From positions 128,962,001-129,026,000 of the forward strand of contig NC_086097.1 of assembly GCF_963921235.1 (NCBI RefSeq): 64,000 bases of DNA. Reading direction: 5' to 3'. The notes under the pieces were generated by a model. That model worked only from the letters and a program-made list of their open reading frames with translations, made no database searches and was not told the origin of the DNA. This document shows, piece by piece, positions 2,515 through 62,340 of this stretch (the stretch's first letter is position 1; the number at the start of each line of letters is the position of its first letter). Source of the DNA: Mobula hypostoma. Taxonomy: Eukaryota. The position numbers were made by a program, and so were the translations under genes.

Positions 2515-2767
2515 CCCGAGGATACCATCCACAATAAATGTTGCCAGGGGGTCAAGCACTGTCCAAAATCCCATTGCTGTGATAAACCTTGACAAGCAGG
2601 ATGGGAATGAGCCAAATTGTCGATGACAGACCCATCTGATTATAGCCATAATAAGCAGCACAGCGTTCAAGGACAGGGGTCCCAGGGCTACGATGGTCAA
2701 CTCCGCACACGTCTCCAGCAGAGAACTCTGGTAGCTAAGTTCGACTGTGTGTGGATAAAAGTGGAAT
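2515..2767 (-). CDS. ofcc1: Internal coding exon (253 nt, phase 2 to 0) of OFCC1/ojoplano-like transmembrane protein
   Basis: Acceptor ttttctttttaAG at 2769-2768, donor GGG|GTAAGT at 2514. Encodes (K)FHFYPHTVELSYQSSLLETCAELTIVALGPLSLNAVLLIMAIIRWVCHRQFGSFPSCLSRFITAMGFWTVLDPLATFIVDGILG and splices in frame to the 5881-6096 exon (AA|A = Lys). Similarity to the OFCC1 TM region is recalled from memory. Confidence 0.8.
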
Positions 2768-5880: not shown

Positions 5881-6096
5881 TTGTTGACGGTGACACCGAT
5901 CGCCTGAAGGTAGATCCACTGACTGCAGTGATGCAGGTAGAGCCGCACAAACCAGACCAAGGCCACGAGCAGCAGAAGCAGACAGGTCTCCGACGAACAC
6001 CACTGCGAAGCTCTGAGCTGATCCAGGAATATTTGGCTCACGAACCGAGCATGCCAGGCGAGAGTTTCCATGGTCTTGTCGGGGCAAGAATCTGAC
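5881..6096 (-). CDS. ofcc1: Internal coding exon (216 nt, phase 2 to 2) of OFCC1/ojoplano-like protein
   Basis: Acceptor aactttccAG at 6098-6097, donor AA|GTGGGT at 5880. Encodes SDSCPDKTMETLAWHARFVSQIFLDQLRASQWCSSETCLLLLLVALVWFVRLYLHHCSQWIYLQAIGVTVNK; the WFxRLYLHxxxQWxxLQAIxxxVxKF pattern matches OFCC1 as recalled. Confidence 0.8.
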
Positions 6097-10985: not shown

Positions 10986-13519
10986 CTGACAAACAGGCAA
11001 CAAATGCAAGATGTTCTTTATATCCCAAGGCCTCCCAAAATGTTTGACTTAAAATTTGCCCAGATGGCTTACACAATCAGTTGACTTAACAATGGCAGGA
11101 AAATAACATTAACCTCTTATTAGTTTAGGACCACAGAACTTCTGCTGAAATCTCATTGGGGAATTCTGCAAAGGAAATTCCACATGCTGTAGTCTATCAC
11201 TGAAAGGGTACAAACCATTTCACAATGAACTGCTGTTTCTCCTTAGTTGTAAAATGTCTAATATATTGATGCTAATTCTTATCCATAGGTAAGTGGATGA
11301 AGATTTAAAAAGAATATATGCTGGCAATCTAGAAGCAGAAAATGATGGAAACACTCAGCAGGTCATACAGCATCTGTGGACAAATGTCTGATTGCAGACC
11401 CGTCATTGTACAGGTGCTTCTTTGTGCGGTAACACTAATAATGCAGAATAATATGTAAAGTCTACCAAGAAAAGTGTTGTGCAGGCGAACGATAAAGTGC
11501 AAGATCATGATGATGTCAACTGTGGGGTCAAGAGTCTGTCTTATCATACAAGACGTCAGTTTTAGAATCTGATAACGTTGGGATAGAAGCAGACCTTGAG
11601 CCTGATGGTGCATGCTTTCAGTGTGCAAGTCTAGTATAATGATAAAATTCTAGTGTGGTAGTGAAGTCATGGATGCATTGAAACTACATTGAAGTCAATG
11701 GAACCAAACTGCAGTGATGAGTGCATCTAACAGCTGTCATCTTGCGACACTTAACCCTGATTAGTACAGACAAATGTCTCTTATTGTGACCTAAACCCAT
11801 AAGCACAGAAGAATAATTGGCAACAATATTCAAGGGATTCATTGGCCTGTTTTTTCCTTGTACTTAACTGGTACACATTCTGTTGTACACATTCTGCTCA
11901 GCAAGAGGTCATCATCAATCTTGACCAACATGGAACAGAAGTTCTCCAACTCTCCAGGACTGTCCTGGAATCACTAGGATCTACAGCCACAGAAACATAG
12001 ATCAGGGATAAGCCTGCACCACCATTCAACATCATCACAGCTGATCATCCAAATTCTTTGCATTATTCATATATGATCCTCATGTTCTTTATGTTCTAGC
12101 CCTAAGAACGATATCTAACTCCACTGTGAATATAGCTGGCTGCAACTGCTTTCTGTTGTAGAGTGTTCTGTGAGTTCACCACCCGAGAAGAGAAGACATT
12201 ACTTCTTATCTTAGTCTAAGATTGCTCTTATCTTTATCCGTAGAGGTCTAATAACCTATGATCTTGGACTTCCAAGCCACCCGGGGCATCTTTCTATATT
12301 TACTTTATCCAGTCCTGTTAAAATTTTAAGGGTTTTAATGAGATCCCCTTTCATTATACTTAACTGTGGCGAATATTGTCCTTATCAACCCAATCTCACT
12401 TTGTACGTCAGTTTTTCCAGGTCACAGATCAGTCCAGGAACTCCACAGAGAAAAAAAACTGTCGAAGCATGAAAGAGGTGGCATGGCATTTTTTTTCTCA
12501 TTTGAGAACATGTCTACTGACCAGTTATAGAAATATTGGAAATGGGAAAAGGAGGTCTGTTTGACTGGGAGAGGTGATGTGAAACTGAAGGGGGAAGGGT
12601 CAAGATACCTCTTGGAAAGTATCCAACAAAAGTTGGCAAGCAAAACTCCAGCCTATTGCTGCAGCATCTTTACTGGAAAGTTGATTTATTTCCCTGCCAT
12701 CCAGTACAATCACCTTGAATTAAGCAGGAAATATTTTGGGCAACGTCTTGCTCATGCCTAATTTTTAAGCTGCTGATAAGTTCCTTGAAGGTTGGAGGGC
12801 ACATTGGTTCACAAAGACAGGAGCATTCTAGCTCACAGCTCACAATGTAGTCGTGTACAACTTGCTCTGTCCCTGTGAGCCAGCAAGGTGTAATTGCTGT
12901 TCCGTGTTCAGGTTAATTAGTGGCTAATTAGTTATAGCAGATGCTCAGGTCAATGTTGCACTCAGAGTTACTTTCCTTTTAGTACTGATCAAGGTGAGGG
13001 CATCAGTGGTGAAAAGGAAAATACTTTCCATTTTCAGGGCCTCTTATGAGGGCTGTCATTCAGGCTAAGTGCGCTGTAACACATTACAGTGGTTACTCCA
13101 CAAGATGAGGCAATATGGCATCTAAATACGTGGATAGAAGATTGGTAAACCAAAAAACTATTTAGTTGGGATAACACTTTTCTAGTTAGCTGGTTATGTT
13201 TAAGTACAGGTACAGGAAGTAATTATAAAGACAACTGTAATGAAAGATCAAAAATAAAATTAAAGATGCTAGAGACAGAAAATGCAAGAAATACTTAACA
13301 GGTTAGTCAGTGTCTGTGGAGGGAGAAACAATTAATATTTCTGGTTCTATCCAAAACTGAGAAAGTTCCAAAACTGACTTGTTTTCTCTTTTCTCATTCT
13401 GACAAAAGGTCTCTGACCTGAAATGTCAACTGCTTCTCCTTCCAGATACTGTCTGACCTGCTGACTGTTTCCAACACTTTCTGATTTAATGAGAGGCAAA
13501 AAAAAAACAGCTTTTACTG

Positions 13520-14710
13520 CAAGAAGAGTAGAGTAAAAATACCTAGTCTTGCTAAGCCTGTACTGGTCAGACCACACCTCGAACACTGCATTTGATTTTA
13601 GTCTCCTTTGGCTCAGAAATAACATAGAGTATATTTTATGCAGAATGACTGAGCAGGTTAGGCCTATGTTTACTGACATTTAGAAGAATAAGCAGTGGCT
13701 TTATTGAAAAATAAAGGATTCTTCAAAGGCTTGACAGGGTAGATATTCAGGCTATGTCCATTGCTTTCTGAATGTGGCCATGCAATTAGATAGGTCATTA
13801 AAGAAGGTGCATGCATGCTTACTTTCATTGGTAGAGACATTAAATATCTGTCACATTGCAGCTATTTAAAACGTTGGTTGGGCTGCATTTGGCGTATGCT
13901 GTGCAGGAAGGATGTGGAGGATTTGAAAGGGTGCAGAAGAGATTTAGCAGGATGCTGCCTGGATTAGAGGGTATGAGTGATAAGGAGAGATTGTACAAAC
14001 TGGTGTTTGTTTTCTCTGGATTGTCAGCAGCTGAGGGGAGCCCTGATAGAAATCTATTAAATTATGAAAGGCAGAAATAGTGCAGACAGAATCTTCTTCC
14101 CTAAGGATAGAAATGTCAAGTAATAGAGGACATGCAATTAAGGGGAGAGAGGGGTAAGTTTAAAGAAGATGTGCAAGGCAAGTATTTTTACACGCGAAGG
14201 TGCCTGGAACAGACTGCCAGAGGAGACGGTTTGTGGTGAAAGCAAATATGATATTGATGTCAGGAGTCTGCCAGGTAGACTCATAAATATGCGGGGATTC
14301 TGGGGATATGGATCATGTTCAGGCAGAACAGATTTAGTTTAATTCGGCATTGGATTCAGCACACACATCATGGACTGAAGGACCTGCTCCTGTGTTGTTC
14401 TATTTAAGAAGGAACGTAGACCTAGGGCAGGCTCTCGGGATAGAGGTTTGCTGATGTAAGAGTGATATGAGGAGGAATATATTTTTTTTTCCCAAAGCAG
14501 AAGACTGTAATTCTTTGGACTTCTCTACTCCCAGAGAGCTGAGGAACAGTTAATGAGTATGTCACTGCACACGTCCTTAGCTGAGAGAGATTTGGACTGT
14601 AATTGTTATGGATATCTTACAGCAATGTGGAGTTGAGATCAAAAATTGAAACAGCCATAATCTTCATGAATGACAGCACCGATTCAAGTGGCTTACATCT
14701 ATTCTTTATG
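13520..14710 (+). mobile_element. Cluster of CR1 ORF2 3' fragments
   Basis: QLFKTLVGLHL..FERVQKRFSRMLPGLEGMSDKERLYKL plus CR1 3' tail. Confidence 0.8.
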
Positions 14711-15319
14711 TGCCGGTGTTCTCCGTTCAGCCCCCACCGTTTTCCATCATTCTTGCAATAATCTTACATCATATACTTGGACGTGTAGTGAAATGTGGAA
14801 TAGAGCACAGAGCTTGAGTTGAGACAAAGGGTTGATCATTAAGTCATTATTAGGTTCTTAATCGGCAAAACTAGTTTGAAGAGCCTTAGGCTGCTCGAGA
14901 TATGCTCAGCATGCCTGAGCTTACTGCTTGATGTTGGAGCCTGGTTAAGCAATGACTCTGTTTGGAAGTTGCTATCACATCCCACCATGGCCTCGTTCCC
15001 TCCCTGTCACCACACCACATGTGTATGCACTTCTCCAATCCTTGAATTAAATCATTCTACCGCGGGCAGCAAAGGGCTGGCCAACCCCTAAACACTCAAA
15101 CTGTTTTCTTAAGCATTTTTGCGTCTCATGCCTCTCTGAAAAGGCATCTTAGAGCTCAGCTCTCCAGGCAAGCAATCTGCCACCTGCCCAAATATCTCCT
15201 TTTATGACCCAGTGTTAGATTTGACTCATAAAGCTCCCGCAAAAATTCCAAGGTCTGTTTCACTTCCCTTCTGATTCCAAACACTTTGCACATTCCATCA
15301 TTTTCATAATGTCTACTGA

Positions 15320-16340
15320 GCAAACACGTCTGGAATATTGTATCCAGTTCTGGTCACCCCATTGTAGAAAGGATGTGGAGGCATTGGAGAGAATGCAGAA
15401 GAATTTTACCGGGATGCTGCCTGGATTAGAGGGCATGTGCTATAAGGAAAGATTAAACAATTTCTGGTTATTTTCTGAGAGTGTCAGAGGCTCAGGGAAG
15501 ATCTTACAGGGTATTACAACCATAAGCCCAGAAGACACAGGAGCAGAATTAGGCCATTTGGCCCATAGAGTCTGCTCCACCATTCCATAATTTATTATCT
15601 CTCTCAACCCCATTCTCATGCCTTCCCCCTATAACATTTACTGCCCTTACGCTACTCTAAACAGTGTTATATGAGGTCATTCTTACCCTTGGCAATTAGG
15701 CTCTATATTGAGTCAACCTATAGCGGGGAAATGATGATCCCCATCTGTTAGACTGTTTGAGGTAACTTATTTTTTACTCTTTCTACTTCTCTTTTAATAT
15801 TTATATCTGTGCACTTGTAATGCTACTGTGACACTGCAAATCTCTTTGAATCAATAAAGTATCTATCTATCTACAAACGTATGTACCTAATCAAGAAGCT
15901 ATCAACTGATTTAAATATACCCAGTGACTTGGGTTTTACAGCCTTCTATGGTAATGAACTCCAAAGATCCACCACCTTCTGGCTAAAGAAATTCTCCCTC
16001 ATCTCTTTTCTAAAGGGACTTCCTTATATTGTGATGCAGTGCCCCTCGTCCTAGACTCTTCCACTATTGGAAACATCCTCTCCACGTCCACTTTATCTAG
16101 GTCTTTCAATATTGGGTATGTTTCAATGAGATCCACCCTCATTCTTGTGAACTCCAGCAATAAAGTACCAGACCTATCAAATACTCATCATACGTTAACC
16201 GTTTCATTCCTGGGATCATTCTCATGAACCTCCTCTGGACTCTCTCCAATGCCAACACATCCTTTCGTAGATAAGGAGCCCAATACCGCTCACAGTACTC
16301 CAAACTGGTCTGACTAATACCTTATAAAGCCTCAGCAGTA
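15320..16340. mobile_element. CR1 fragments (+ at ~15320-15500, - at ~15520-16340) with a Rex1-type 3' end at ~15650-15873
   Basis: LEYCIQFWSPHCRKDVEALERMQK; caataaagtatctatctatct tail. Confidence 0.75.
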
Positions 16341-16508
16341 ACTGAAACTTGCTTCTCTCAAATTATTATCATGTGGTGATGCAATATTTCACATCAATAC
16401 ATGCTGCGTGGTGGTTAACTCAGAACTGATCCCGCTCACACCTCCTGAAGGCATAGAAGGAGACCGTATCGTCCATCAAGTTGTGTTATCTTTCAATCTA
16501 ATCCCATC

Positions 16509-16954
16509 CAGGGGTGCAGTGGTAGCCGGAGCGCTCTGAAATGCATTTGGCACCTCTTTAAGGAAAAAGCCAAAATAAACAAGCTAATTAATTAGGTGCC
16601 GCCTAGGGTGATTTGAGTCTGTCAGAAACTGCTGATCTCCTGGGATTTTTATGCACAACATACTCTGGAGTTTACAAAGAATGGTGCCAAAAACAAAAAA
16701 AAAATCCAGCAAATGGATTTAACAAGATGTTTTCGCTCACCGAACAGCCACTCACTGGATTTTTTTTTTGTTTTTAGCACATTCTTTGTAAACTCCAGAG
16801 TATGTTGTGCGTAAAAATTCCAGGAGATCAGCAGTTTCTGAGAGACCCACATCACCCTGGGTGGCACTTAATTAATTAGCTTGTTTATTTCAGCTTTTTT
16901 CTAAAAGAGGTGCCGAACGCATTTCAGAGTGCTCCGGCTACCACTGCACCCCTG
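16509..16954. mobile_element. hAT-ended foldback element with ~200-bp arms containing Tc1 transposase sequence
   Basis: Termini CAGGGGTGCAGTGGTAGCCGGAGC / GCTCCGGCTACCACTGCACCCCTG; perfect 8-bp TSD atcccatc (16501-16508, 16955-16962). Confidence 0.92.
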
Positions 16955-18309
16955 ATCCCATCAATATTATTGCCACAATTATTTCCCTGTAACCAATTTT
17001 TGCACACAATTGTAATATTTGCCCTTCCCAGTCTCATAACACACATCTACACTAGAGACAATTTATGGTAGTTAATTAACCTGGCAACCCATGCAGTCAC
17101 ACAAAAAAACATGTAAAAAGCGTGCAGAGGTGGCAGAATCAAACCCAGGTCACTGTAGCTGTGACAGCAGCATGAACTATACTGCCCCTTCCACTTAACC
17201 TACTCCCTAACATCCATTCCCATGAATCCTTTCAGTTTTTGCTTTTCTCAGTTTAAATATACCTCAGTGTGACGTTACTGCAGCTCGGGGCATCAGAGTT
17301 CGGAGTTCCATTTCCACTGGAAGGCGTCTCCCTGTGGAATGCATGGCTTTTCTTTGGGTGCTCTTTTTTTCTCCCACAGTCCAACATGGCTTGAGTGGCC
17401 AGAAACGCCTATTCTGCGTTGTTTCTCAATTAATTAATCGATCAATAAAATGCTTCCCGGACACGATTTCCTCCAATAACTTCAACTTATATTTTTTCTT
17501 ATTTGAATTTTAAACAATTTAATGTTAGAGGTCAATCATCTCTTTGCTAACTACAAAAAAATCACTGGAATTTTGATGCAGATGGCTGCAAGTCTCGACC
17601 CGAACTGGTCTTTTACCAGGCAATGATACTGAAACAGCACAAGAACTTTGAAACAATAACTCTTCATTTTTTTAAGAAGCATCATTACAAACATTCTGCA
17701 AGTCTAGGTCAATGTTACAAATGCTGTGTTCTAAATTTATTTGGGCCTATTGAAGCATGCATTATAATGACCTCAGATGGAAAACTAGTCTGAATGTATG
17801 CACTTCTGCCATGCAGAAAGCTTGCTTAGGATATGCTATTGCACTAGAACTTTCAATATTACTGCAAGGCCTTCCAATTCCTTACTGGAAGAATCATTAA
17901 ATCAAACAGAATTAGAGCTTTTAAGAACTAAAATGTTTGTTCTTCCTAACGACGTGATGCTACGCCTGGCAAGAATAATTATGAAGCAGCATGGATACTA
18001 GATACACTTCGTGAAAAAGCAATAACATAAAAAGCACATAAGACTGCACAGCAGTGAATAATAATATCATATGAATAACTGTGCCTTTTGCTATCACAGG
18101 AGAATTGAGTAGTCTGTGAAATTCTGACACTGATTGAACAGTGCAAACCGGGAAATAGGTAATTTGCTTAAGCAGTTGTCAGGTGAATAAACCACATTGA
18201 AATCTTCCTCTCAATATGATCACCAATGATCTCTTTCATTCCCAAACGTCCATCTTCACCTTCCACCCTCGCACTTAATAGGAAAAAGATGCAGAACTGT
18301 AACCAGGTA

Positions 18310-20177
18310 TGATTTGCGGAGGGCTACTTCAAGGGCAAAGAGACAAATTTGAATGAAGTTGCAGGCGACATCAGATGTACAACAACTCTGGCAGGGTTTG
18401 CAAGACATTACTTCCTACATAGCAAAACCAAATAGCATGAATGGCAGCGATACTTCACTACCAGATGAACTCACGCCTTATATGTCTGCTTTGAAAGGGA
18501 GAATACAGCTACAGCTGTGAAGATCCCTGCTGCACCCAATGACCCTGTGATCTCTGTCTTAAAGGTGATGTTAGGTTGTCTTTAAAGAGAGTGAACCCTC
18601 GCAAGGTGGAAGGTCCCTGGTAAGGCTCTGAAAACCTGTATCATCCAACTGGTGGGAGTATTCAAGGACATTTTCAACCTCTCACTGCTATGGGTGGAAG
18701 TTCCCACTTGCTTCAAAAAGGCAACAATTATACCAATGCCTAAGAAGAATAATGTGAGCTGCCTTAATGACTATCGCCTGTTAGCACTCACATCTACAGT
18801 GATGAAATGCTTTGAGAGGTTGGTCATGACTGGACTGAACTCCTGCCTCAGCAAGGACCTGGACCCATTGCAATTTGCCTCATGCCACAATAGGTCAAAG
18901 GCAGACACAATCTCAATGGCTCTTCACACGGCTTGAGAGCACCTGGGCAACACAAACACCTATGTCAGGATGCTGTTCATCGACTGTAGCTCAGCATTTA
19001 ATACAATCATTCCTACAATCCTGATTGAGAAGTTACAGAACCTGGGCCTCTGTACTTCCCTCTGCAACTGGATCCTTGACTTCCTAACCGGAAGACCACA
19101 GTCTGTGTGGATTGGTGATAACATCTCCTCCTCACTGACGATCAATACTGGTGCACCTCAGGGGTGTGTCCTTAGCCCACTGCTCTACCCTCTCTATACC
19201 CATGACTGCATGAGTCGCCATGGCTCAAATACCATCTATAAATCTGCTGACGATACAACCATCATTGGTAGAATATCTGGTGGTGACAAGAGGGCATAGA
19301 GGAGTGAGATATGCCAACTAGTGGAGTGGTATCACAGCAACAACCTGACAACCTGGCGCACAATGTCAGTAAGACAAAAGAGCTGATTGTGGACTTCAGG
19401 AAGGGTAAGATGAAGGAACACATACCAATCCTCATAGAGGGATTAGAAATGGAGAGAGTGAGCAGTTTCAAATTCCTGGGTGTCAAGATCTCTGAGGACC
19501 TAACCTGGTCCCAACATATCGATGCAGTTATAAAGAAGGCAAGACAGTGGCCATACTTTATTAGGAGTTTGAAGAGATTTGGTATGTCAACAAATACACT
19601 CAAAAACTTCTATAGATGTACCCTGGAGAGCATTATGGCAGGCTGCATCACTGTCTGGTACGAGGGTGGGGGCGGGGGGGGGGCGTGGTGCTACTGCGCA
19701 GGACTGAAAGAAGCTGCAGAGGGTTGTAAATTTAGTCTGTTCCATCTTGGGTACTAGCTTACAAAGTACCCAGGACATTTTCAGGCAGTGTCTCAGAAAG
19801 GCAGCGTCCATTATTAAGGACCTCCAGCACCAAGGGCATGCCCTTTTCTCACTGTTAACCATTAGGTAGGAGGTACAGAAGCCTTAAGGCACACACTCAG
19901 CGATTCAGGAACAGCTTCTTCCCCTCTGCCATCCGATTCCTAAATGGACATTGAACCCTTGGACACTACCTCACTTTTTTAATATATATTATTTCTGTTT
20001 TAGCATGATTTTTAATCTATTCAATATATGTATACTGTAATTGATTTACTTATTTATTATTATTATTTTTACAATTATTATTGCATTTTTTTTCTTCTAT
20101 ATTATGTATTGCATTGAACTGCTGCTAAGTTAACAAATTTCATGACACATGCCGGTGATAATAAACCTGATTCTGAA
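18310..20177 (+). mobile_element. Rex1/Babar non-LTR retrotransposon, 5'-truncated and frameshifted
   Basis: [46 protein letters not shown]; ends aataaacctgattctga. Confidence 0.9.
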
Positions 20178-21655: not shown

Positions 21656-23289
21656 AATATTCCCCCTGCAATGGTTAACATCAGCCCTTCTAATTACTAC
21701 ACACCATAGCTGCATCAGGAATCTCTGTATTTATGCTTTTTGCTCTACACAACTCAACCTCACAGTGATCCAGGTCGAATGACTGCCCAAGAGGCAAATT
21801 TGTAACTAGGAGAGTCTATGAATGCCAGCTTCAGTATGATTTGACATCTACATCAGAATTTTCTGCACGAGTTGACAACACTCCATCATAGTGCCCTCAC
21901 TGACCATGAGAAGACAGTGGTGAGCTATCTCTGGACCAGCTCTGATGAAGGAGTTCCCACTGTGCTATTGGCGAGGGGATCACAGAAGTTAGACCCAGTG
22001 ACAAGGAAAGAAGATACTTCCAAGATAGAATGTTGTGAGTGGCAGAGGAGGGAAAATTTGTATATAATTCTGAATGAGCACAACTCAACAAATAATTCAA
22101 AGTTTAATATCAACAATAAAGAACTGTCAAAGTAATAATTGTGTCAGTAAAAATCCCAAAGTGTACGTACCCTTGCATCCAACAGTTCCTGCTGTTTTCT
22201 CTCAAAATGAAATATTTATTTAGTTCTAATGAGATTTGCCAATAGTTACGGAGAACTACATGTACAAGAAAACTTGTCAAACTGGAGTGTTACTCAACTG
22301 ATTAAATTCACCAATTTGGTTTGCTTAAGTAATAAATCATATTCCAGAACTATTCCAGTTGTCTAAAAATGTATTACAGCTTCAACAAAGAATGCAATCA
22401 GGTGATTATAGTTTCAAGACCAGTATGAAATGGCAAGCTCTAGTTGCAAAAGTTAAGCCTTTACCCCATTGACTGGGTGTCACTCATGATAAGATCACAC
22501 AAACCCCACAAACAGCAAAAGCCAAGTATTCGGCCTTGCACCAAATACATCTGACCTGCACCCTCAAGGCTGTAACTCTTAAGCAGAAATGAACAAGTTT
22601 TCAGTTTGTGACCCAGAAATTCTATCATGTTGTGCAAAGTGTATATGTACTACGTGATATAATTTTGATCAGGAAAAACTACCAGGAAAAAGGATTGGGA
22701 ATTCACTGTGGATCGAGATTTTTCTTCTTATTTGCTCTATGGCTAATATGCAAAGTTAGTGGTCCCCAGCATCACATACTGCAAGCCTGGATCCCAATCC
22801 CAATCTCTCTCCAGCCTTCTATATCACAAACATTGCCTGAAAGAAGTTTGAAAAACAGCACCTCACCTTTGGTCTAGTATGTCAAAGTCATTAGTACTTA
22901 ATAATGAATTTAATAATTTTTGGTAATCACTGTTTCTGAATCTCTCTCTCTGCAGATGGCTCTATCTCCATGTTACAAGTTGTTTCCTTTTTTGGTCCTT
23001 CCTGTCTCCGACTGCCCACTTTTTTAACTGTTACCTTGACAACTTTCACCTGCATCTCATCACAGACTTCCCTTCTGCTTTCTCCATAACATCCCCCACA
23101 CTACCTATCCATTCAAAAGCACCCTTACTGTGAAACATCGATCCAGTTTCCCTGTAGACATCTCATGAACTGCTGAGTACTTTTAGCAACCTTTGCTTGA
23201 CAAACTCTTAATGTCGGGTCCTCTCAAGGTTATGCCAGGGCTACCTTCATGTGTACGGTTTGGTAACTGAACATTTGGGGTAGGCACTT

Positions 23290-23871
23290 ACATTTCCAAC
23301 TTGCCAAATGATTTACGGCTCTGCAATATTCTTTCAATTTCTTGATGATTGTTTCAACTGTACTGCAAGGGATATTCAGTGATTTGGAAATTTTCTCGTA
23401 TCCATCGCCAGACTTGTGCTTTTCAATAACATTTTCGCGGAGTTGCTTGGAGTGTTCTTTTCTCTTCATGGCGTAGTTTTTTGGCAAGATACTGACTCGC
23501 CAGCAGTTGGACTTTCCAGATACAGGTGTATATTTATGACAATCATTTGTAACACCTTGAGTGCACATAGGTCTCTGAAAACAGATCTCTATTTAACTAA
23601 TTATCTGACTTCTAAAACCAATTGGCTGCACCAGAGATGATTTGGTGTGTCATATTAAAGGGGGGTTAAATATTTACGTCATGATGTTTTATATTTGCAA
23701 TTTAATTTAGATCACAGTCGAGGTCTGTTTTCACTTTGACATGAAAGAGTCTTTTTCAGTTGATCAGTGTAAAAACAAGCCAAACTAAATCTACTGTGGC
23801 TCAATGTTGTAAACCAATAAAATATGAGAACTTCCAAGGGCGGGGGGGGGTGAATACTTTTTATCGGACTG
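23290..23871 (-). mobile_element. Tc1-family transposon, 5' part (TIR plus transposase N-terminal HTH)
   Basis: TA|CAGTCCGATAAAAAGTATTCACCCCC terminus; MKRKEHSKQLRENVIEKHKSGDGYEKISKSLNIPCSTVETIIKKLKEY from ATG at 23469. Confidence 0.9.
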
Positions 23872-37826: not shown

Positions 37827-39556
37827 ACAGTGATGAAATGTTTTGAGAGGTTGGTCATGACTAGACTGAACTCCTGCCACAGCAAGGACCTTGGCACATT
37901 GCGTTTTGCCTATTGCCACAATAGGCCAATGGCAGACGCAATCTCAGTGGCTCTCCACACAGCTTTAGACCACCTATACAACACAAACACCTATGTCAGG
38001 ATGTTGTTCATCTACTATAACTCAGCATTTAATACCATCACTCCTACAATCCTGATTAAGAAGTTGCAGAACCTGGGCCTCAGTACCTCCTTCTGCAATT
38101 GGATCCTCGACTTCCTAAATGGAAGACCTCAGTCTGTGTGGATTAGTAATAACATATCCTCCTCGCTGACTATCAACGCTGGCGCACCTCAGGGGTGTGT
38201 GCTTAGCCCACTGCTCTACTCTGTATATACACATGACTGTGTGGCTAGACATAGCTCAAATACCATCTATAAATTTGCTGATGATACAACCATTGTTGGT
38301 AGAATCTTAGGTGGTGACGAGAGGGCGTACAGGAGTGAGATATGCCAACTAGTGGAATGGTGCCACAGCAACAACCTGGCACTCAACGTCAGAAAGACAA
38401 AAGAGCTGATTGTGGACTTCTGGAAGGGTAAGACGAAGGAACACATACCAATCCTCATAGAGGGATCAGAAGTGGAGAGAGTGAGCAGCTTCAAGTTCCT
38501 GGGTGTCAAGATCTCTGAGGATCTAATCTGGTCCCAACATATTGATCAAGGACACGACCCACCCAGCCAACAAACTTTTCATCCCTCTCTCGGGGAGAAG
38601 GCTCAGGAGCTTGAAGACTCACATGGCCAGATTTAGGAACAGCAACTTTCCAACTGTGATAAGACTGCTGAACGGATCCTGACCCAGATCTGGGCCGTAC
38701 CCTCCAAATATCCGGACCTGCCTCTCGGTTTCTTTTGCACTATCTTACTTTCCCTTTTCTATTTTCTATTTACGATTTATAATTTAAATTTTTAATATTT
38801 ACTATCAATTTGTACTCCAGGGAACACGAAGCGCAGAATCAAATATCGGTGTGATGATTGCATGTTCTAGTATCAACTGTTTGGCGACAATAAAGTATAA
38901 AGTAAAGTTGATGTAGTCATAAAGAAGGCAACACAGTGACTATAATTCATTAGGAGCTTGAAGAGATTTGGCATGTCAACAAACACACTCGAAAACTTCT
39001 ATAGTTGTACTGTGGAGAGCATTCTGACAGGCTGCATCACTGTCTGGTATGGAGGGGCTACTGCACAGGACCAAAAGAAGCTGCAGAAGGTTGTAAATCT
39101 AGTCAGCCCCATCTTGGGCACTAGCCTACAAAGTACCCAGACATCTTAAGGGAGTGGTGTCTCAGAAAGGCAGCGTCCATTATTAAGGACCTCCAGCACC
39201 CAGGGCATGCCCTTTCTCACTGTTACCATCAGGTAGGAGGTACTGAAGCCTGAAGGCACACACTCAGCAATTCAGGAACAGCTTCTTCCCCTCTGCCATC
39301 TGATTCCTGAATGGACATTGAGGCTTTGGACACCTCCTCACTTTTTTTAATATACAGTATTTCTGTCTTTGCACATTTTTAAAATCTATCCGATATACGT
39401 AATTGATTTACTTGTTTATTTATTATTATGTTTTATTTCATTTATTATTATGATTTTTTTCTCTCTGCTGGATTTTGTATTGCATTGAACTGCTGCTGCT
39501 AAGTTAATAAATTTCACGTCACATGCTGGTGATAATAAACTTGATTCTGATTCTGA
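37827..39556 (+). mobile_element. Rex1/Babar RT fragment inserted in CR1
   Basis: [30 protein letters not shown]; closely similar to 18310-20177; gattctgattctga tail. Confidence 0.9.
38547..38907 (+). mobile_element. 3' end of a second Rex1-type family inserted in the Rex1 copy
   Basis: 5-bp duplication ttgat (38542-38546, 38908-38912); [21 protein letters not shown]; (TAAAG)-like tail. Confidence 0.75.
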
Positions 39557-48042: not shown

Positions 48043-48680
48043 GGACTCCGCCTTCCGCCTGTGGACATGTAAAACACAGTTTCTTTATGTCCGCCTTTAA
48101 TTTCTCCCTTTTCCGACTCAAACTTTGAAATTTTAACTTTATTCAGTCGGATTTTGTAGAGTGACAGTTATAATTATGTCTAACACAAGAAGCACCAAAT
48201 GAAATCCTGAGGCAGCCAAAGGTAAGCCTAAAAAGTTGCCAAGACTTCGGAGGAGCCACCCTGGGTAAATAGATTAGAGTCTCCAATCAGCTATATCGTT
48301 ACTGGATTAACTGAACTGAAAGAAAGATTTCCCCCTTTGGAGGAAAAAATTGACTCTTTGAGCCTTGATCTTAAAGAGGTGAGTCGAAATGTGGGTGATA
48401 CTTCTTCCCCTCTGGAAAAGGCTCAACAATGGATCGTGGATTTGGAGGCTCGCTCTCGTCAGAACAATATTCGAATTGTTGGATTAAAAGAGAAATTGGA
48501 ATCCGCCAACACACTGGACTATTTTGCTAAAATGTTTCAATCTTTATTTCCAGAGGCTTGCGTGGAACTGCCGGAGATTGAAATGGCTCATAGGGTTGGT
48601 GCTCTAAAATCCTCGGATCAAAGTAAAAACAGGCATGTCGTTGTGAGTTTTCTTCGTTTCAGAGACAAAAAGCAGGAATT
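48043..48680 (+). mobile_element. L1-clade LINE 5' fragment (5' UTR and ORF1 RRM region)
   Basis: IVDLEARSRQNNIRIVGLKE..IEMAHRV..RHVVVSFLRFRDK, typical of L1 ORF1p; a stop follows soon after the ATG at 48177. Confidence 0.8.
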
Positions 48681-49184
48681 AAACAGAATGCTCAACATGA
48701 CACACAACAAATGCGGAGAGAGAAAATGTGAAGGGGTGTTGGCACAATTTAGAGGATAGGTTATTGGAGAGGTAAAAAAACAAAAGAATAATCCGGAAGA
48801 GGTGTAAATAGGAGTAACAGGATCACTTTCTGAAATTGCTAAATCAATATCTGAGTCTGAAGGCCAACAGTGATGAGATGTTTAATTAACTGTACTTGTT
48901 ATAAATGCACATCGAGTGTTGGTCTTTTATTTTTATTTTTATTCTTTTTATTTCTTTAAATTGGGTTCCTTTAGGTTTCTTGCTTTATGGCTACCTGTGA
49001 GCAAGCAAATCTCAAGGTTGTATAATTTATACATTCTTTTGTGATAAATGTACTTGAACTTGAAGTTTCCTTTGTTCAATTTATGGACAAATATGGTGCA
49101 CCTGGCCCAGGGAACATAATCATGCCCTCCCAGAAGAACTCTTCATGCTGTAAAACAAAAGGTTTTTCATCAAGACTGGAGATT

Positions 49185-50800
49185 CAGTGATCGGTGACTT
49201 TGGACAGCTCCCAGCGGATTGGAAGACAGCAAATGTCACGCCACTGTTTAAAGAAGGATATAGGCAAAAGGTGGGTAACTATAATTAGCTATAGTTACCC
49301 GCCTTTTATGTTAGCTGCCTGTTATGTTATGTTAGCCTGTAGTTGGGAAAATGCTTAAACCTATCATTAAGGAAGAAATAATGAGACATCTGGATAGCAG
49401 TGCTCACACAGGCAGACACGGTACGGATTCATGAAGGGTGGCTTATATTTGATAAACTTACTGAAGATCTTGAAGGAAACAATGAGTGCAAAGGATAGGG
49501 GGGAACAGGAGGATGTTGTACTCAGTGGCCACTTTAAAAGGTACACCTGCTGGTTAATGCAAAAATGTAATCCGCGGCCAATCATGTGGCAGTAACACAA
49601 TGCTTAAAAGCATGCAGACATGGTCAAGAGGTTCAGCAGTTGTTCAGACCAAACATCAGAATGGGGAAGAAATGTGATCTCAGTGACTTTGACCGTGGAA
49701 TGATTGTTGGTTCCAGACAGAGTAGCTTGAATATTTCAGAAACTGCTGATCTCCTAGGATTTTCGCACACAGCGGTCTCTAGAGTTTACAGAGAATGGTC
49801 CAATAAACAAAAAGTCATCCAGTGAGCAGCAGTTCTGTAGGTGAAAATGCTTTGTTCATTAAGGAGGTCACAGGGGAATGGCCAGACTGGTTCAAGCTGG
49901 TAGGAAGGTGACAGTAACCGAAAGAATCGTGTGTTACAAGTGATCTGCAGAAGAGCATTTCTGAATGCACAACACATTGAACATTGAAGTGGATGGGCTA
50001 CAGCAGCAGAAGACCATGAACAATCACTCAGTGGCCATATTAATAGGTACAGGAAGTACAGAGGCATTTGATAAGGTGGCGCATAAAAGACTTAATCATA
50101 AGCCTAGAGGATTGGTTTACCAATATGAGGCAGAGAGTTGGGAAAAATGGGTGTTTCTCTGGTTGATTGTCAGTGGTGGGTGGAATGCTGAACGGATCGG
50201 TACTGGGTGCGCAACTGTACACAATTTGCATTAACAATTTGGAAGAGGGGCCAGAGTGTAGCGAATTTGAGTATGCCAATGACACTAAATCAAATGTTAA
50301 AGCAAATTGTGGAGAGTCTGCAGAAAGTTATAGACAGGTTAAGTAAGTGAGCAAGCTTCTGGCAAATGGAGTACAGTGTTGGTAAAGGAAAGGTTCTCAC
50401 TTTGGGAGGAAAATAGATCAGATTATTATTTAAATGGTGAAAGATTGCAGCATGCTGTTGTGCAGAGGGACTTGGGAGTACTTGTGCATGAAATTCAAAT
50501 GCTTGTTTGCAGCTGCAACAGTTAACAAGAAGGTAAATGGAACGTTGGTCTTCATTGTTGAATTTAACAGCAGGGAGGTCTAGCTGCAACTGTACAAGGT
50601 ACTGGTGAGACCACATCTGGTGTACTGCGTACAGCTCTGATCTCCTTACTTGAGGAAAGATATACTGGCTTTGGAGGTGGTACAGAGGAGGTTCACAGGG
50701 TTGATTCTGGAAAAGAGAGGGTTAGTTTAAGAGGAGAGATTGAGTCACCTGGGACTACACTCACTGGAATTCAGAGAGGGATCTTATAGAAACATGAAAA
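49185..50800 (+). mobile_element. CR1 RT fragment interrupted by a Tc1 derivative
   Basis: AFDKVAHKRL remnant; tggcaaatggagtac; ctggtgagaccacatctgg. Confidence 0.8.
49519..50060 (+). mobile_element. Non-autonomous Tc1-family element
   Basis: TIR ctcagtggccacttt..ggtaca; MGKKCDLSDFDRGMIVGSRQSSLNISETADLLGFSHTAVSRVYREW. Confidence 0.88.
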
Positions 50801-52345: not shown

Positions 52346-55300
52346 TGTAGGTTAATGTAAGTGGTGGAAACACACGCATCATTCACAACCACCAACACTG
52401 AGCTGGAGTTCACTTTAGGAGGCTGTGTCTGACGTGTTGATGTAACGACGATAAGTCTTTTACCACGCTTTATGTTCTGTGTTTGGTTGAAAATAACATG
52501 AGTTGATACAGTTTCCCTTAAACTTAAAAAGCCTCTGTTGTTTTATTTAAGAAAACCTACGTTGGTAATGTGGATGTTCTAGGATATTTCCTAGGATAGT
52601 TACTCAACATATCGGCCAATGCAGTTGCTTTGAAACTGCTGGAGTTTTGGGAGCAAAATGCCGTGGTTCGGTTTGTACAAGCAAGGTCCAATTCGCACTG
52701 CGAGAAATCTCCACAGATGGCACCAGATATTACTACGTGATCGTGTCGCTCAGTAGTTCCACGACAGTGAGAATGGTGAGTCTGCTTGAACACTCACCTG
52801 AATGCAAAAAGTATGGCACGTCAAAAACTCGCCTATTACAGACTTCCGGACTATCAGAATCTGAGCACGCCAAACAGTTGCTCCCCTCACTCTGCCTGGG
52901 GATGCTCGGCCTTCAGAGCTAATGGACCATGTGTTGCCTCTCCTGCTAATCACCGTCCTTTTTTTATTTTTAAAGAACTCTTCATGCAGCAAATGCCTGA
53001 TCATGTTCACACTGCCCTCGCTGATGCACCCATAAAGAACTACAGGGAGCTTTGCTAAAATGGCTGCTAGTCTACACTCAGCCAGGCAGAGGTGCATAAT
53101 TCCTCCTCCTTTCCCTACCTCAATAAGCCCAGTCAGTAGGGCTCTCCAACACACGCATGCCCACAGCAGCAGAATAGACGTCAGGTCTGTGCTTTTACCA
53201 AACTCCTTTTGGTACGAACGCCAGGAAGTGCTGACCCTCTTACAGCTCCAAAAGTGCCAGCACATCAGGACATCAGAAGTCTGTGAATACCGTGGATTCC
53301 ATCTGCCAGGGTCATCTACTGTTCATTATGGAGACCCTTTCAAGGCCACATTTCTTATGGGACCCAGCTGCTCAGATGAGCGTGCTACCAGGTAAAGAGC
53401 ACAAAACCTCACTGGAAGCTGCCAACAGCAACAGGATCCAGACTTACAGGACACGATGGGTGACGCTCTGCTTCAGTGGGCGACATTATACAAGGGACTT
53501 TGTCCTGGCTAGACCTCAGCTCGGCACAGATTTCCTGTGTGCCCAAGGACTGTTGGTTGATCTTAAGAACTGCCGGCTTGTGGATGTCAAGGAGTTTGGG
53601 TCATTATCCTGCTTCCCCAGTAAGTTCCCACAACAACTCTGTCAAGTGCATGCACCACCGCATATGCGTTTCCTCGACTGCTGGGCAAAATCCAAAACCT
53701 CATCAAGCCCACATTCAACATTACAGTCACAAAACATGGGGTCGAGCACCACATTTCCACAACTGGCCCACCAGTCCGTGCCCCTGCGCACAGAATGGAC
53801 CCAGAAAAGCAGGCAACCGTGAAGGCTGAGTTTGCCAATGTGGAAAGGCTTGGTATTGTACGCAGGTTGAATACTCCCTGGGCTTCAGCACTCCACAATG
53901 GTCCCAAAGTCTGATGGTGGTTGCCACCCATGTGGTCATTAGCTTAACAAGGCCACACCTCTGCCTGTTACCCTGTCCCACACATCCTAGACTTTTCAAC
54001 ACGTTTGGCTGGAAAGTCATTCTTTTCTTAAGTTGATTTAGACAGGGGCTACCATCAGATGCCTGCGTGCTCGGAGGACATCCCCAAAGTGGGGGTGATA
54101 TCCCTATTTGACCTCTGAATTTCTGCACATGCCGTTTGGGCTGAAAACTGTAGCACAGACTTTCCAACGACTGGTAATGACTTAAGATTTTCCTTTTGTT
54201 TACCTGGATGACGTATTTGTCGTCAGTGCATCCAAATCCAAACATTTATCCACACACTTTGAGCACTTAAGCCAACACAGGTTGATCAGAAACCCTGCTA
54301 AATGCCAGGTTCGGTTGTTAGCTATTCAATTTCCTGGCCATCACATTTCCACAGAAGGTGAGAAACTCCTCCCAGCAAAAATCACCGCTATTATGGATTT
54401 CCCACCGCCCCGCACTACAAAAAAATTGCAGAGTTTTTTAGGTATGGTGAATTTCTATCACCGTTTCATTCCATAAACTGCTGAACTTGTGCTCCCCTTG
54501 TGTGTTGCCTTTAAAGGCAATGCCCCAAATCGTGTACTTGACTGGTCAATGGACAAGACCAGAGTACTTGATGACACCAAACGAGCTCTCTCCAAAGCAA
54601 CCCTACTGGCACAGTCACTCCCAAATGCACCCATTGCCATTACGACCGATGCTTCAGACTAAGCTGTGGGTGCTGTGCAGGAACAGCAGGTCAGAGTCAT
54701 GTGGCAGTTGCTCGCCTTCTTCAGCTGGCAGCTCCGATTCCTGAAAGGAAGTACACCACCTTCAACCGTGAGCTTCTCGACTCTATCTGGCTGTCCACCA
54801 TTTTCATTTTCTACTACAGGGTCGCTATTGAACAGTGTTCATTGACCACAAATCCCTCATGCACGTGACAGCCAAAATATTAGACCCTTGGTCTGCATGG
54901 CAGCAACACCACCTGGCCGACATATCTGAGTTCACGAGTGACATCAAGGGGAAAAATAACGCCCTGGCTGATTGCCTCTCACGGCCAGCTATTGAGGCCA
55001 TACACGTAGGCGTTGACTATGCCGGTGTGGCAGCTGACCAAGCTACTGACCCAGAGGTCCAGGCTAACCAAAGAGCAGTCACAGCCGTGCCATCAGCTGA
55101 CAGTAAGTTTGGGGAAGCTGGGGTTTCTCTCCTGTTCGATGTCTCAACTGGTCATCCTCACACCCTGGTGCCCGCAAACTGGAGGGGTACCATTTTTAGC
55201 TCCATTCATGACCTCTCACATCCTGGCCCAAAGGCCTCACAGAAACTGGTTCAACTAAAGATTGTGTGGTACAGCCTTAGAAAGGACCTGCGTGACTGGA

Positions 55301-56560
55301 GTGCAGCCTGTGTTGAGTGCCTGCGGACAAAAACTAACCATCATGTTTGGGCACCATTGATTCCTTTCGAGATCCCTGAGCGATGGTTTGACCATGTGAA
55401 TGTGGATCTTGTTGGTCCTTTTTTCCCCCACCCACAGTTTCATGCACCTCCTTACCACGGTGGACATTATCAGCAGGTGGCCAGAGGTCGTCCCTCTACC
55501 ATCGACAAAGGCCACTGACATGGCCCGGGCGTTCAACAACACTTGGGTTGCCCAGTTTGGCACACCATCTGATAATTCCTCTGACTGCAGTCTCCAATTC
55601 ACATCAGAACTCTGGGATGCAATGGCCCAGAACCTCAGCGTTAGGCTACATCACACCACGGCATATCACCCACAGTCCAAAGGCCTGTGTGGTTTCACCA
55701 CTACTTAAAGGCTGCTCTGAGGGCTTCCCTAATGATGAGTATTGGCATGTCATCTCCAGCAGGTGCTGCTGGGGCTCTAAATGGCTTCAAAGGAGGACCT
55801 GCAGTAGAACCTGGTTGAGTTGGTATACGGGCAGCCGTTACAAGTTCCAGCTGATTTTATTCCTGACACCACGACCGCCAGGTCGGCCTTTCAGCAGTAT
55901 TCCACCCTCCCCAGTAAACTCAATTCCTCTGTATCTATTCCTACCTCCCATCAGAGCGTATAGCACTCTTGTGTTCCTGTTGACCTACACACCGCGTTAT
56001 TCATTCTCCTCTGCCACAATGCACACCTGCATCCCCTTAGGCCCCCTTACAATGGCCCGTTCTGTGTTTTGGATCAGAAAGAAAAGACTTTTATCATAGA
56101 TAGGAAGGGTACATCTGAAGGTATTTTGGTAGATCGCCTTAAACCAGCCCACCAAGAGTTGGAGGATTCCACTACCATGCCCTTGGCATTACAACAGGAC
56201 CATAAGAGTGTCAACACACCTCTGGATTAGCCAGAGGCACCTGCTGTTATTCCACCCATGGAATACAAGATCCAAGCCAGGCGCCTTGTCTGAAATCTGG
56301 ACGGGCTCACAATGCTAGCTTTGGTTAATTCTGGTGGGAGCCTGTTTAGGGTAATGTAGGGGTGAAACCATATGCATAATTTACAACCGCTATTCTTAAA
56401 CTAGGGTTCATTTAAGAGACTGGTCTGACACGATAATGTAATGATATGAAGTTTTTTTTTACCACGCTTTATGTTTTGTGTTTGGACGACATTAAAGCGA
56501 GGTGTTACAGTTTCCCTTAAACTTAAAACGCCTCTGCTTTTTTATTTACAAAATCCTACA
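52346..56560 (+). mobile_element. Full-length degenerate Ty3/Gypsy LTR retrotransposon (CsRn1-type)
   Basis: 216-bp LTRs (52346-52561, 56345-56560); TSD acag (52342-52345, 56561-56564); PBS-like tggt and PPT-like tract; gag KLLEFW..; CFYQTPFGTNARKC; protease remnant FLWDPAAQMSVLP; FVYLDDVFV; TDASD; HDLSHPG..CVEC; HVNVDLVGP; PPYNGPF; domain order RT-RH-IN. Confidence 0.93.
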
Positions 56561-57019: not shown

Positions 57020-57885
57020 TCGGAGTCATACAGGATGGAAAAGGGCCCATCGGTCCACTGGTCAATGCCAACCAACTTGCCTATCTAAGCAAGTCCCATC
57101 TGCTTGAATTTGGCCCATAAGCCTCAAAACCTCTCCCTATCCACATATTTATCCAAGTGTCTTTTAAATGTTGTTATGGTGCCTGCCTCAACCACTTCCT
57201 CTGACAGCTTATTTCATATACACACCATCCTCTGGTTGAAAAAGTTGCCCCTCAGATTCTTATTAAATCTCTTTCCTCACACCTTAAACCTTTGCCCTCT
57301 AGGTTTTGATTCTCCAAAGCTGGGAAAATGACTATATGCATTCATTCGATCTATGCACTCATGATTTTATACATAAGATCACCCTTTATTCTCCCACATC
57401 CAAGGAATGAAGCCTCATCCTGCACAACCTTTCCCTGAAACTCATTCCTTAAGTCTTGGGGATATCCCCCATAAATCTTTTCTGCACTCCTTCCAACTCA
57501 ATGGCACCTACGCTGCAGCAGAGTGACCAGAACTGAACACAATATTGCAAATGCGGCCTCACTATTGTCTTACACAATTGCATCCCAACTTCTATGCTCA
57601 ATATACATCAAAGTTGCTGGTGAACGTAGCAGGCCAGGCAGCATCTATAGGAAGAGGCGCAGTCGACGTTTCAGGAAGGGTCTCGGCCTGAAACGTCGAC
57701 TGCGCCTCTTCCTATAGATGCTGCCTGGCCTGCTGCGTTCACCAGCAACTTTGATGTATGTTGCTTGAATTTCCAGCATCTGCAGAATTCCTGTTGTTCT
57801 ATGCTCAATGCTCAGTCCCTTGACGGATGACATTTGGCCAGTGTGCCAAAAGTCTTTCTAACCATCCTATCTGCCTGTGAATCTT
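57020..57885 (-). mobile_element. CR1 3' fragment hosting the 57603-57796 hairpin
   Basis: CR1 tail and ORF2 C-terminal similarity to other copies. Confidence 0.8.
57603..57796. mobile_element. 194-bp Penelope-terminus-derived hairpin insertion
   Basis: 73-bp arms (57603-57675, 57687-57759) with one mismatch; 13-bp TSD ttctatgctcaat (57590-57602, 57797-57809). Confidence 0.92.
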
Positions 57886-61806: not shown

Positions 61807-61940
61807 ATAACTAACTATAACCACAGTTCAATAAAGTTACAGTCAACGAGTAAGGAAACTAGCACAGAGATTCAATTCACTCGATTCGACAAGTACTGGA
61901 AGGCAGTACGATTTTGCAGCTTCATACAATAGAAGATTTA

Positions 61941-62340
61941 CGCTCAGGGACCACTTCAGGTACCTCCCGTATCTAATAAATTGGCCATTGAGTACGTGTT
62001 TATAGTCTTCTGCTGCTGTAGCCCATTCATTTCGAGGTTCAACATGTTGTGCATTCAGAGATGCTCTTCTGCACTCCACTGTTGTAATGTGTGGCTATTT
62101 GAATTACTGTCACCCTCCTGTCAGCTTGAACCATTCTGGCCATTCTCCTCTAACCTCTCTCATTAACAAGGTACTTGCGGCAACGGAACTATTGCTCACT
62201 GGATTTCTTTGTACTATTCTCTATAAACTCTAGAGACTGCCGTGTGTGAATCGTCCAGGAGATCAGCACTTTTTGAGATACTCAAACCACCCCATCTGAC
62301 ACCAACATTCATTCTACGGTCAAAGTCACTTAGATCACCA
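61941..62340 (-). mobile_element. Non-autonomous Tc1 element of the same family as 49519-50060
   Basis: Reverse-complement similarity to 49670-50060; terminal TIR next to TA at 61939-61940. Confidence 0.85.

Follow-up and report, generated by a model that had tools for sequence, protein, structure and literature searches.

How does a short inverted repeat come to carry, in each of its arms, a piece of the transposase sequence of another superfamily? We addressed this question for an element lying in a 64,000-nucleotide stretch of the Mobula hypostoma genome (contig NC_086097.1, hereafter the window), the features of which are given in Table 1. A sequence-only reading had described inverted arms of ~200 bp, CAGGGG termini and a perfect 8-bp TSD. 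All three were found, the arms proving slightly longer than had been claimed (16509-16716 and 16748-16954). The TSD, ATCCCATC, is a perfect 8-bp match at the two sides of the element (16501-16508 and 16955-16962), and the probability of this 8-mer recurring by chance at the far end is 1.3e-5; a 9-bp TSD was also tried at the flanks and the bases do not fit. The arms align over 208 bp with ~90% identity, and each consists of a hAT-type end of ~96 bp followed by ~112 bp of Tc1 transposase sequence. Repeat analysis found neither a direct-repeat family nor tandem sub-repeats within an arm. The arms differ in 20 of the 208 columns (16 transitions, 3 transversions and 1 gap, 9 of the differences being CpG-type), which corresponds to a K2P distance of 0.10, or 0.053 without the CpG-type sites. 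These differences represent drift after insertion, which has by now taken the arms ~10% apart. Elasmobranch substitution rates are slow, and at such rates a divergence of ~5% per arm suggests an old insertion.

Table 1. Positions in the window of the element, its parts, related Tc1 copies and host exons.
Feature	Position	Strand	Remarks
Whole element	16509-16954		446 bp; ends CAGGGG/CCCCTG
TSD, left copy	16501..16508	.	8 bp, ATCCCATC
TSD, right copy	16955..16962	.	8 bp
Left outer arm	16509..16604	+	hAT-type end, first bases CAGGGG
Left inner arm	16605..16716	+	Tc1 transposase 5' coding sequence from ~codon 20, no start codon; sense on +
Spacer	16717..16747	-	31 bp; 16719-16747 continue the right-arm Tc1 sequence
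Right inner arm	16748..16858	-	mirrored Tc1 piece
Right outer arm	16859..16954	-	hAT-type end
Outer junction	16595..16604	+	GGTGCC-nnn-C, in register with the same Tc1 word
Micro inverted repeat across the turn	16702-16708/16714-16720	.	7 bp; 5-nt loop
Tc1 derivative of the donor family	49521..50058	+	short, decayed; not the donor itself
Second copy of the donor Tc1 family	61935..62338	-	5'-truncated
ofcc1 exon next downstream of the element	5881..6096	-	element ~10.4 kb upstream of its acceptor
Following ofcc1 exon	2515..2767	-	

The termini and the TSD had together been called the hAT signature. As regards the ends and the length of the duplication this was upheld: CAGGG at both ends agrees with the terminal motif YARNG (PMC3014272), and a TSD of 8 bp, as for hAT, is present at one locus. 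As to the target sequence, ATCCCATC, a single site, fits neither the central TA nor the NTRNNYAN pattern tabulated for anole hATs in the accessible text of PMC3014272. The 208-bp arms also lie outside the 10-25 bp that the accessible text of PMC3942097 gives for the TIRs of autonomous hATs; in the same portion of PMC3014272, one anole hAT MITE has 57-bp TIRs, so that a hAT MITE may have long arms. The same history could have been driven by a different mover from a superfamily with 8-bp TSDs and long TIRs (Mutator/Foldback-like, P/Galileo-like or Merlin), and the length of the arms, the off-pattern target site and ends without a link to a transposase would all accord with this; we nevertheless consider it unlikely. 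Most MULE TSDs are 9 bp long, and GG opens the ends of Merlin elements. Moreover, the ends fit YARNG, several anole hAT TIRs begin with the same CAGGGG (PMC3014272, accessible text), the arms are free of tandem sub-repeats, and the duplication is exactly 8 bp where Galileo makes 7 bp, as far as PMC3573991 was accessible. Membership in hAT itself would rest on the terminal motif and one TSD, and the element is most aptly classed as a MITE with hAT-type ends.

The inner arms were said to match the HTH-coding segment of a Tc1 transposase, and alignment of the arm interior bears this out with two window copies. The inner arm matches Tc1 remnants at 49727-49847 (E 1e-17) and 62205-62292 (E 5e-11 to 6e-10) and reaches a local score of 92; the outer 85 bp score 18-23 at best and have no Tc1 match to the window remnants. 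Over an ungapped core of 77 bp, the arms are 93.5% identical to each other and 74-77% identical to either window Tc1 copy, and both arms share nine substitutions against both copies. Since the arms resemble each other more than they resemble Tc1 and have these nine sites in common, they stem from the duplication of one already diverged piece, not from two Tc1 insertions. The spacer continues the Tc1 sequence on one side only, as the sequence-only reading had also proposed. Read on the minus strand, 19 of 29 bases agree with the Tc1 continuation against each window copy (p 1.6e-5), compared with 1/31 and 5/31 in the control reading from the left arm. Of the 31 spacer bases, 29 continue Tc1 from one side, and 16717-16718 are the sole non-Tc1 bases. 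The captured piece is without its first 19 codons and its start codon and is preceded by an in-frame stop, and is therefore non-coding.

The peptide of the Tc1 remnant at 49661-49822 has 484 relatives among 495 candidates, with a best identity of 82%; many of these carry PF01498 and some PF13358, and the named ones are called 'Tc1-like' or 'Tcb2'. This remnant thus encodes the N-terminus of a Tc1-type transposase. With Pfam alone, the Tc1 peptide had only HTH matches below threshold, and the arm peptide had no relevant match. A further 25-bp match, at 39397-39421, falls within the AT-rich tail of a LINE and is attributed to chance. In the derivative of the donor family, the left terminal sequence is found again, in direct orientation, at the right-hand end; in the 62-kb copy, a decayed inverted copy comes next. 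The derivative resembles the left half of a Tc1 that ends in a tiny TIR-TIR element from its own family. Elsewhere in the window, a second Tc1 family, of Sleeping Beauty type, is represented by a remnant (23233-23592, minus strand; PF25787, E 1.5e-18), and a 165-bp palindrome (57599-57763; 93%) consists of a repeat end with further occurrences in the window. There are also broken LTR-retrotransposon-like frames (~52500-56100, plus strand; DUF7041, E 1.6e-6, with integrase-like words recognized by eye) and a 175-aa frame that is LINE ORF1-like by eye (48232-48756, plus strand), for which Pfam gave only a weak coiled-coil match.

Twenty-four public runs matched, 20 of them with the stretch or part of it. 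Contigs from 4 of the 24 were aligned at 80% likeness to 16330-16770, which covers flank, left arm, spacer and 23 right-arm bases: X1 (organism A), X5 (organism B), X9 (organism C) and X22 (organism A, guessed to be RNA). A single X1 contig, at depth 6.46, covers the left flank, which has no cover in X5, X9 or X22. Summed over contigs, the depth of Tc1-like sequence peaks at ~117,000 times the flank. Such filler is therefore expected from its abundance. A decayed genomic copy from this extremely abundant Tc1 family is the most likely donor. The ends are related to an abundant repeat as well. Summed depth rises to 0.3-1.0 million over 16555-16599 and then falls from 233,623 at 16600 to 16,611 at 16604, ahead of the Tc1 contigs, which begin aligning at 16605-16606. 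Consequently, a separate and very abundant repeat possesses 16550-16603 without the Tc1 interior. Its peak summed depth is ~155,000 times the flank in X1 and is high also in X5, X9 and X22, and in X9 only, 18 loose ends (agreement 0.82) carry it on into a shorter version of the same terminus. We take this Tc1-free repeat to be a sister or parent family of the element's ends. The repeat is itself likely to be a major MITE family of these rays. One X1 record (r3, 16508-16618) has 10 gaps, the number by which the short-ended family differs in length, yet extends 14 letters into Tc1; it may be a short-ended copy, and possibly represents a second chimeric subfamily.

The junction between end and Tc1 piece retains traces of how the two were joined. 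Loose ends of Tc1 contigs upstream of 16605 carry GGTGCC in register with the GGTGCC of the arm (16595-16600); after this shared word come three unlike bases and then a common C, and the junction base is identical in both arms. The microhomology is thus homeology beside the switch point and not a perfect overlap at it, and it is a fair inference that GGTGCC-nnn-C is what a homeology-guided template switch leaves. In animal Pack-TIRs, microhomology at capture breakpoints is the rule according to the accessible text of PMC8277862. At the turn, loose ends of Tc1 contigs align on the spacer from 16719 (142 in X1, 107 in X9), and the two non-Tc1 bases 16717-16718 fall within the 7-bp micro inverted repeat. 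This repeat fits a snap-back, suggestively only, since 3 of its 7 pairs are native to the Tc1 piece; in yeast, template switching at short inverted repeats gives inverted junctions (PMC11790251, accessible text).

These observations bear on the proposal that a hAT MITE captured part of a Tc1 and was then symmetrized by template switching. Capture followed by symmetrizing, in a mobile element with hAT-type ends, is supported by the shared sites and by the same junction base in both arms. For the template switching itself, the marks at the junctions make it a fair inference; a choice of replication fold-back over arm-templated gap repair does not follow, the data fitting both alike. A different order of events is distinctly improbable. 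It would have a free Tc1 fold-back palindrome form first and be taken up whole between the ends of a palindromic parent, and GGTGCC, being present at both junctions, could indeed have guided two switches. However, this would require two independent switches at the same base in addition to a separate Tc1 palindrome, while one junction, subsequently mirrored, accounts for the same data with fewer events.

The element had been placed in a host intron, and this position is supported by two exons of ofcc1. The exon at 5881-6096 was found by a splice-site scan of the minus strand, and all 71 residues that it encodes agree with the annotated ofcc1 proteins of two Mobula species (100% identity). The exon at 2515-2767 was found by TBLASTN with four ofcc1 proteins, and within both exons the sequence agrees fully with the Mobula hypostoma protein. 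TBLASTN with the same four proteins gave no convincing earlier exon between 6097 and 64000; if the ofcc1 annotations are right, these positions place the element inside an intron longer than 58 kb. No host exon emerged when 291 of the 348 candidate ORFs were scanned with Pfam, the wrong frame of the 5881-6096 exon has no relatives, and a candidate exon at 12715-12870 was dropped as it has no relative either. Transcription of ofcc1 would thus be predicted to read through the element on the minus strand. Among the runs listed, none of RNA holds 14500-18700, which tells in neither direction.

Such a transcript would contain a long hairpin, as the earlier reading had anticipated. Both strands fold as one long hairpin (-336.1 and -328.7 kcal/mol; 0/100 shuffles as good), the second value being that of the transcribed strand (z -34), and the duplex includes five perfect runs of 21-30 bp. 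If the intron RNA folds, the hairpin could, we presume, be a substrate for ADAR or Dicer. Rfam gave no match at E<=0.1 in 15500-18000. We asked whether the family could have acted as a mobile silencer across superfamilies, in which intronic Tc1 hairpins distributed by hAT transposition would be diced to siRNA, would have helped to extinguish a Tc1 burst in rays and would have favoured retention of the copies. Like a killer locus, the element is an inverted duplication of transposase sequence inside a host transcription unit. The stability of the hairpin, its perfect runs and its intronic position would suit this role, as would a contig across the chimeric junction in the RNA-guessed run (X22 r9) and the stretch 16622-16649, which shows no difference from other contigs among the matches listed (40 of 44 rows). 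Nevertheless, near-identity to an active target is lacking. The captured piece is 74-77% like the two window Tc1 copies, which are themselves decayed, and its longest exact word in common with a window Tc1 copy is 20 nt, whereas Mu killer, which shuts down MuDR, carries kilobases of its own active target (PMC3440606). Family-specific depth is tiny relative to the Tc1 peak, by a rough estimate 0.07-0.13% in X1 DNA and 0.015% in X22, and the decay of the arms looks neutral: most changes are transitions, in part CpG-type, and nothing points to conservation. In the RNA-guessed run, thousands of copies are superimposed, so that editing cannot be read from its letter differences. We therefore hold both the silencer role and its part in ending a Tc1 burst to be very improbable; if true, one transposon superfamily would distribute an RNAi trigger against another.

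Since all of the above describes one locus, we examined whether other copies of the chimera exist. In X1, summed depth is 896-993 at the terminus and ~530 at 16545, that is, 82-154 times the flank, a measure that is not a copy number and in which non-chimeric elements with the same end are also counted. One variant at 16545 is common to 35 contigs in X1, 23 in X5 and 12 in X9. The family probably comprises tens of elements, as an upper bound. Records bridging the junctions were drawn from the 32 listed of 31,194 pieces, with at least 31 letters required on each side of the outer junction; joints marked 'opposite strands', which arise as the aligned stretch has Tc1 in both directions, were left out. 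The outer junction is bridged by at least 7 of the 32 (X1 r4; X5 r17, r18, r20 and r21; X9 r26; X22 r9), with 14-25 differences from the window element, and the turn by at least 3 of the 32 (X1 r4, X5 r24 and X9 r32). X1 r4 bridges both junctions, has 25 letter differences and carries 178 unrelated letters upstream, and this divergence and unrelated sequence show that it comes from a different locus of that organism. X5 r19 and X9 r25 fall below the bridging rule and could represent the orthologous right arm, as possibly could X5 r21. Diverged copies with the same two junctions mean that the chimera formed once and then spread, so that the junctions predate the amplification. Most contigs depart from the left arm at 8 positions, 2 of them dominated by Tc1 contigs, and at 7 of the 8 the right arm has the majority letter. 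The founder was thus near-symmetric and the differences between the arms arose after insertion. That the window element is a one-off rearrangement of an ordinary MITE after insertion, as most single-copy animal Pack-TIRs arise according to the accessible text of PMC8277862, or else an assembly artefact, as might be suspected given that none of the contigs listed spans the whole aligned stretch 16330-16770, is largely refuted by the diverged records that share both junctions in three organisms, X1 r4 included, and, for an assembly fold-back, by the 10% arm divergence with its CpG signature. Pattern scans of metagenome, viral and prokaryote data gave 3, 1, 0 and 5 loci, and none of these nine matches further than ~35 bases about the pattern, as expected of chance.

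The element therefore has the features of a MITE: it is 446 bp long, non-coding, bounded by terminal inverted repeats and multi-copy with the same structure. We consider it likely to be a dead copy of a non-autonomous, MITE-type family with hAT-type ends, in which a Tc1 piece was captured, mirrored and then spread. Its formation may be pictured in three steps. In the first, DNA synthesis at a parent element's end, in the course of break repair or replication, would have switched into one of the numerous decayed Tc1 copies at the shared in-register GGTGCC and copied ~140 bp of Tc1 coding sequence. In the second, the single arm together with its junction would have been copied inverted by a second switch, in an order that the data show and by a mechanism that we infer from them; this would have left 29 bp of Tc1 without a mirror copy, and an insert of 2 bp inside the micro inverted repeat. 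In the third, a hAT transposase acting in trans would have carried the product, which had two intact ends, to some tens of sites. Here the multi-copy state is observed and the enzyme is a supposition, and the spread would have preceded the split of organisms A, B and C. The window copy would have landed in the ofcc1 intron and its arms would have drifted ~10% apart since. According to this scheme, the Tc1 piece would be passenger filler and the intronic hairpin a by-product.

Each of these steps has counterparts in known systems, described here as in the accessible portions of the sources. The hobo-N families of Anolis carolinensis (PMC3014272) are likewise hAT families carrying fragments of other superfamilies, but they are 1.3-3.4 kb long with 11-bp TIRs and contain the filler once, in the middle, whereas in the 446-bp Mobula element the foreign piece is mirrored and occupies over half of each arm. 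MER6/MER6A (PMC6887750) is also an amplified vertebrate MITE made from two unrelated elements, Mariner ends and a V-SINE domain; it differs in its 24-bp TIRs, its TA TSD and a V domain present once (bases 60-240), and its cargo is a SINE domain where that of the Mobula element is transposase coding sequence. In Galileo '2RT' copies (PMC3573991), internal sequence has been copied inverted beside the other end, so that both TIRs are longer, and for non-autonomous copies repair templated on the other TIR has been proposed. Galileo, however, is of the P superfamily, with a 7-bp TSD and tandem-repeat TIRs, and recruits its own sequence; with its 8-bp TSD and arms free of internal direct repeats, the Mobula element does not conform to Galileo or Foldback. 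Multicopy Pack-TIRs such as Pack-hAT-N8_XT, and the FoSTeST model for them (PMC8277862), involve microhomology-guided capture followed by transposition, and are rare (4 of 281 vertebrate cases, 1.4%). The Mobula element resembles them in its breakpoint microhomology, but Pack-TIR cargo is non-TE host sequence and is not mirrored, while here it is Tc1. Mu killer (PMC3440606) and the Ac/Ds inverted-duplication silencers (10.1101/2020.01.07.897926) are inverted transposase duplications in host transcription units as well; those are single loci of kilobases, derived from and directed against their own active family, with silencing demonstrated, whereas the Mobula element is short, diverged, cross-superfamily and mobile, and its hairpin is known from sequence alone. 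Finally, Made1-derived miR-548 (PMC1784062) illustrates palindromic MITE hairpins as sources of vertebrate small RNAs; the Mobula element differs in having no Rfam match within the interval and threshold given above.

The single steps are thus known, and their combination is unusual. We found no report of this family, or of a MITE with foreign transposase sequence mirrored in both arms, in the literature searched, which lay mostly outside subscription papers, supplements, Repbase and Dfam. The palindromic fish and frog MITEs in Repbase and Dfam may include like cases. Since the element belongs to a multi-copy family, it is more than a single oddity. It amounts to a fossil of the birth of a MITE in which three steps, capture, mirroring and spread, are still readable, and both junctions, both parents and three organisms are available to date them. 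Repeat libraries may label such elements as Tc1 from their interior. If the hairpin yields small RNAs, the family would represent a vertebrate counterpart of Mu killer that is mobile and acts across superfamilies.
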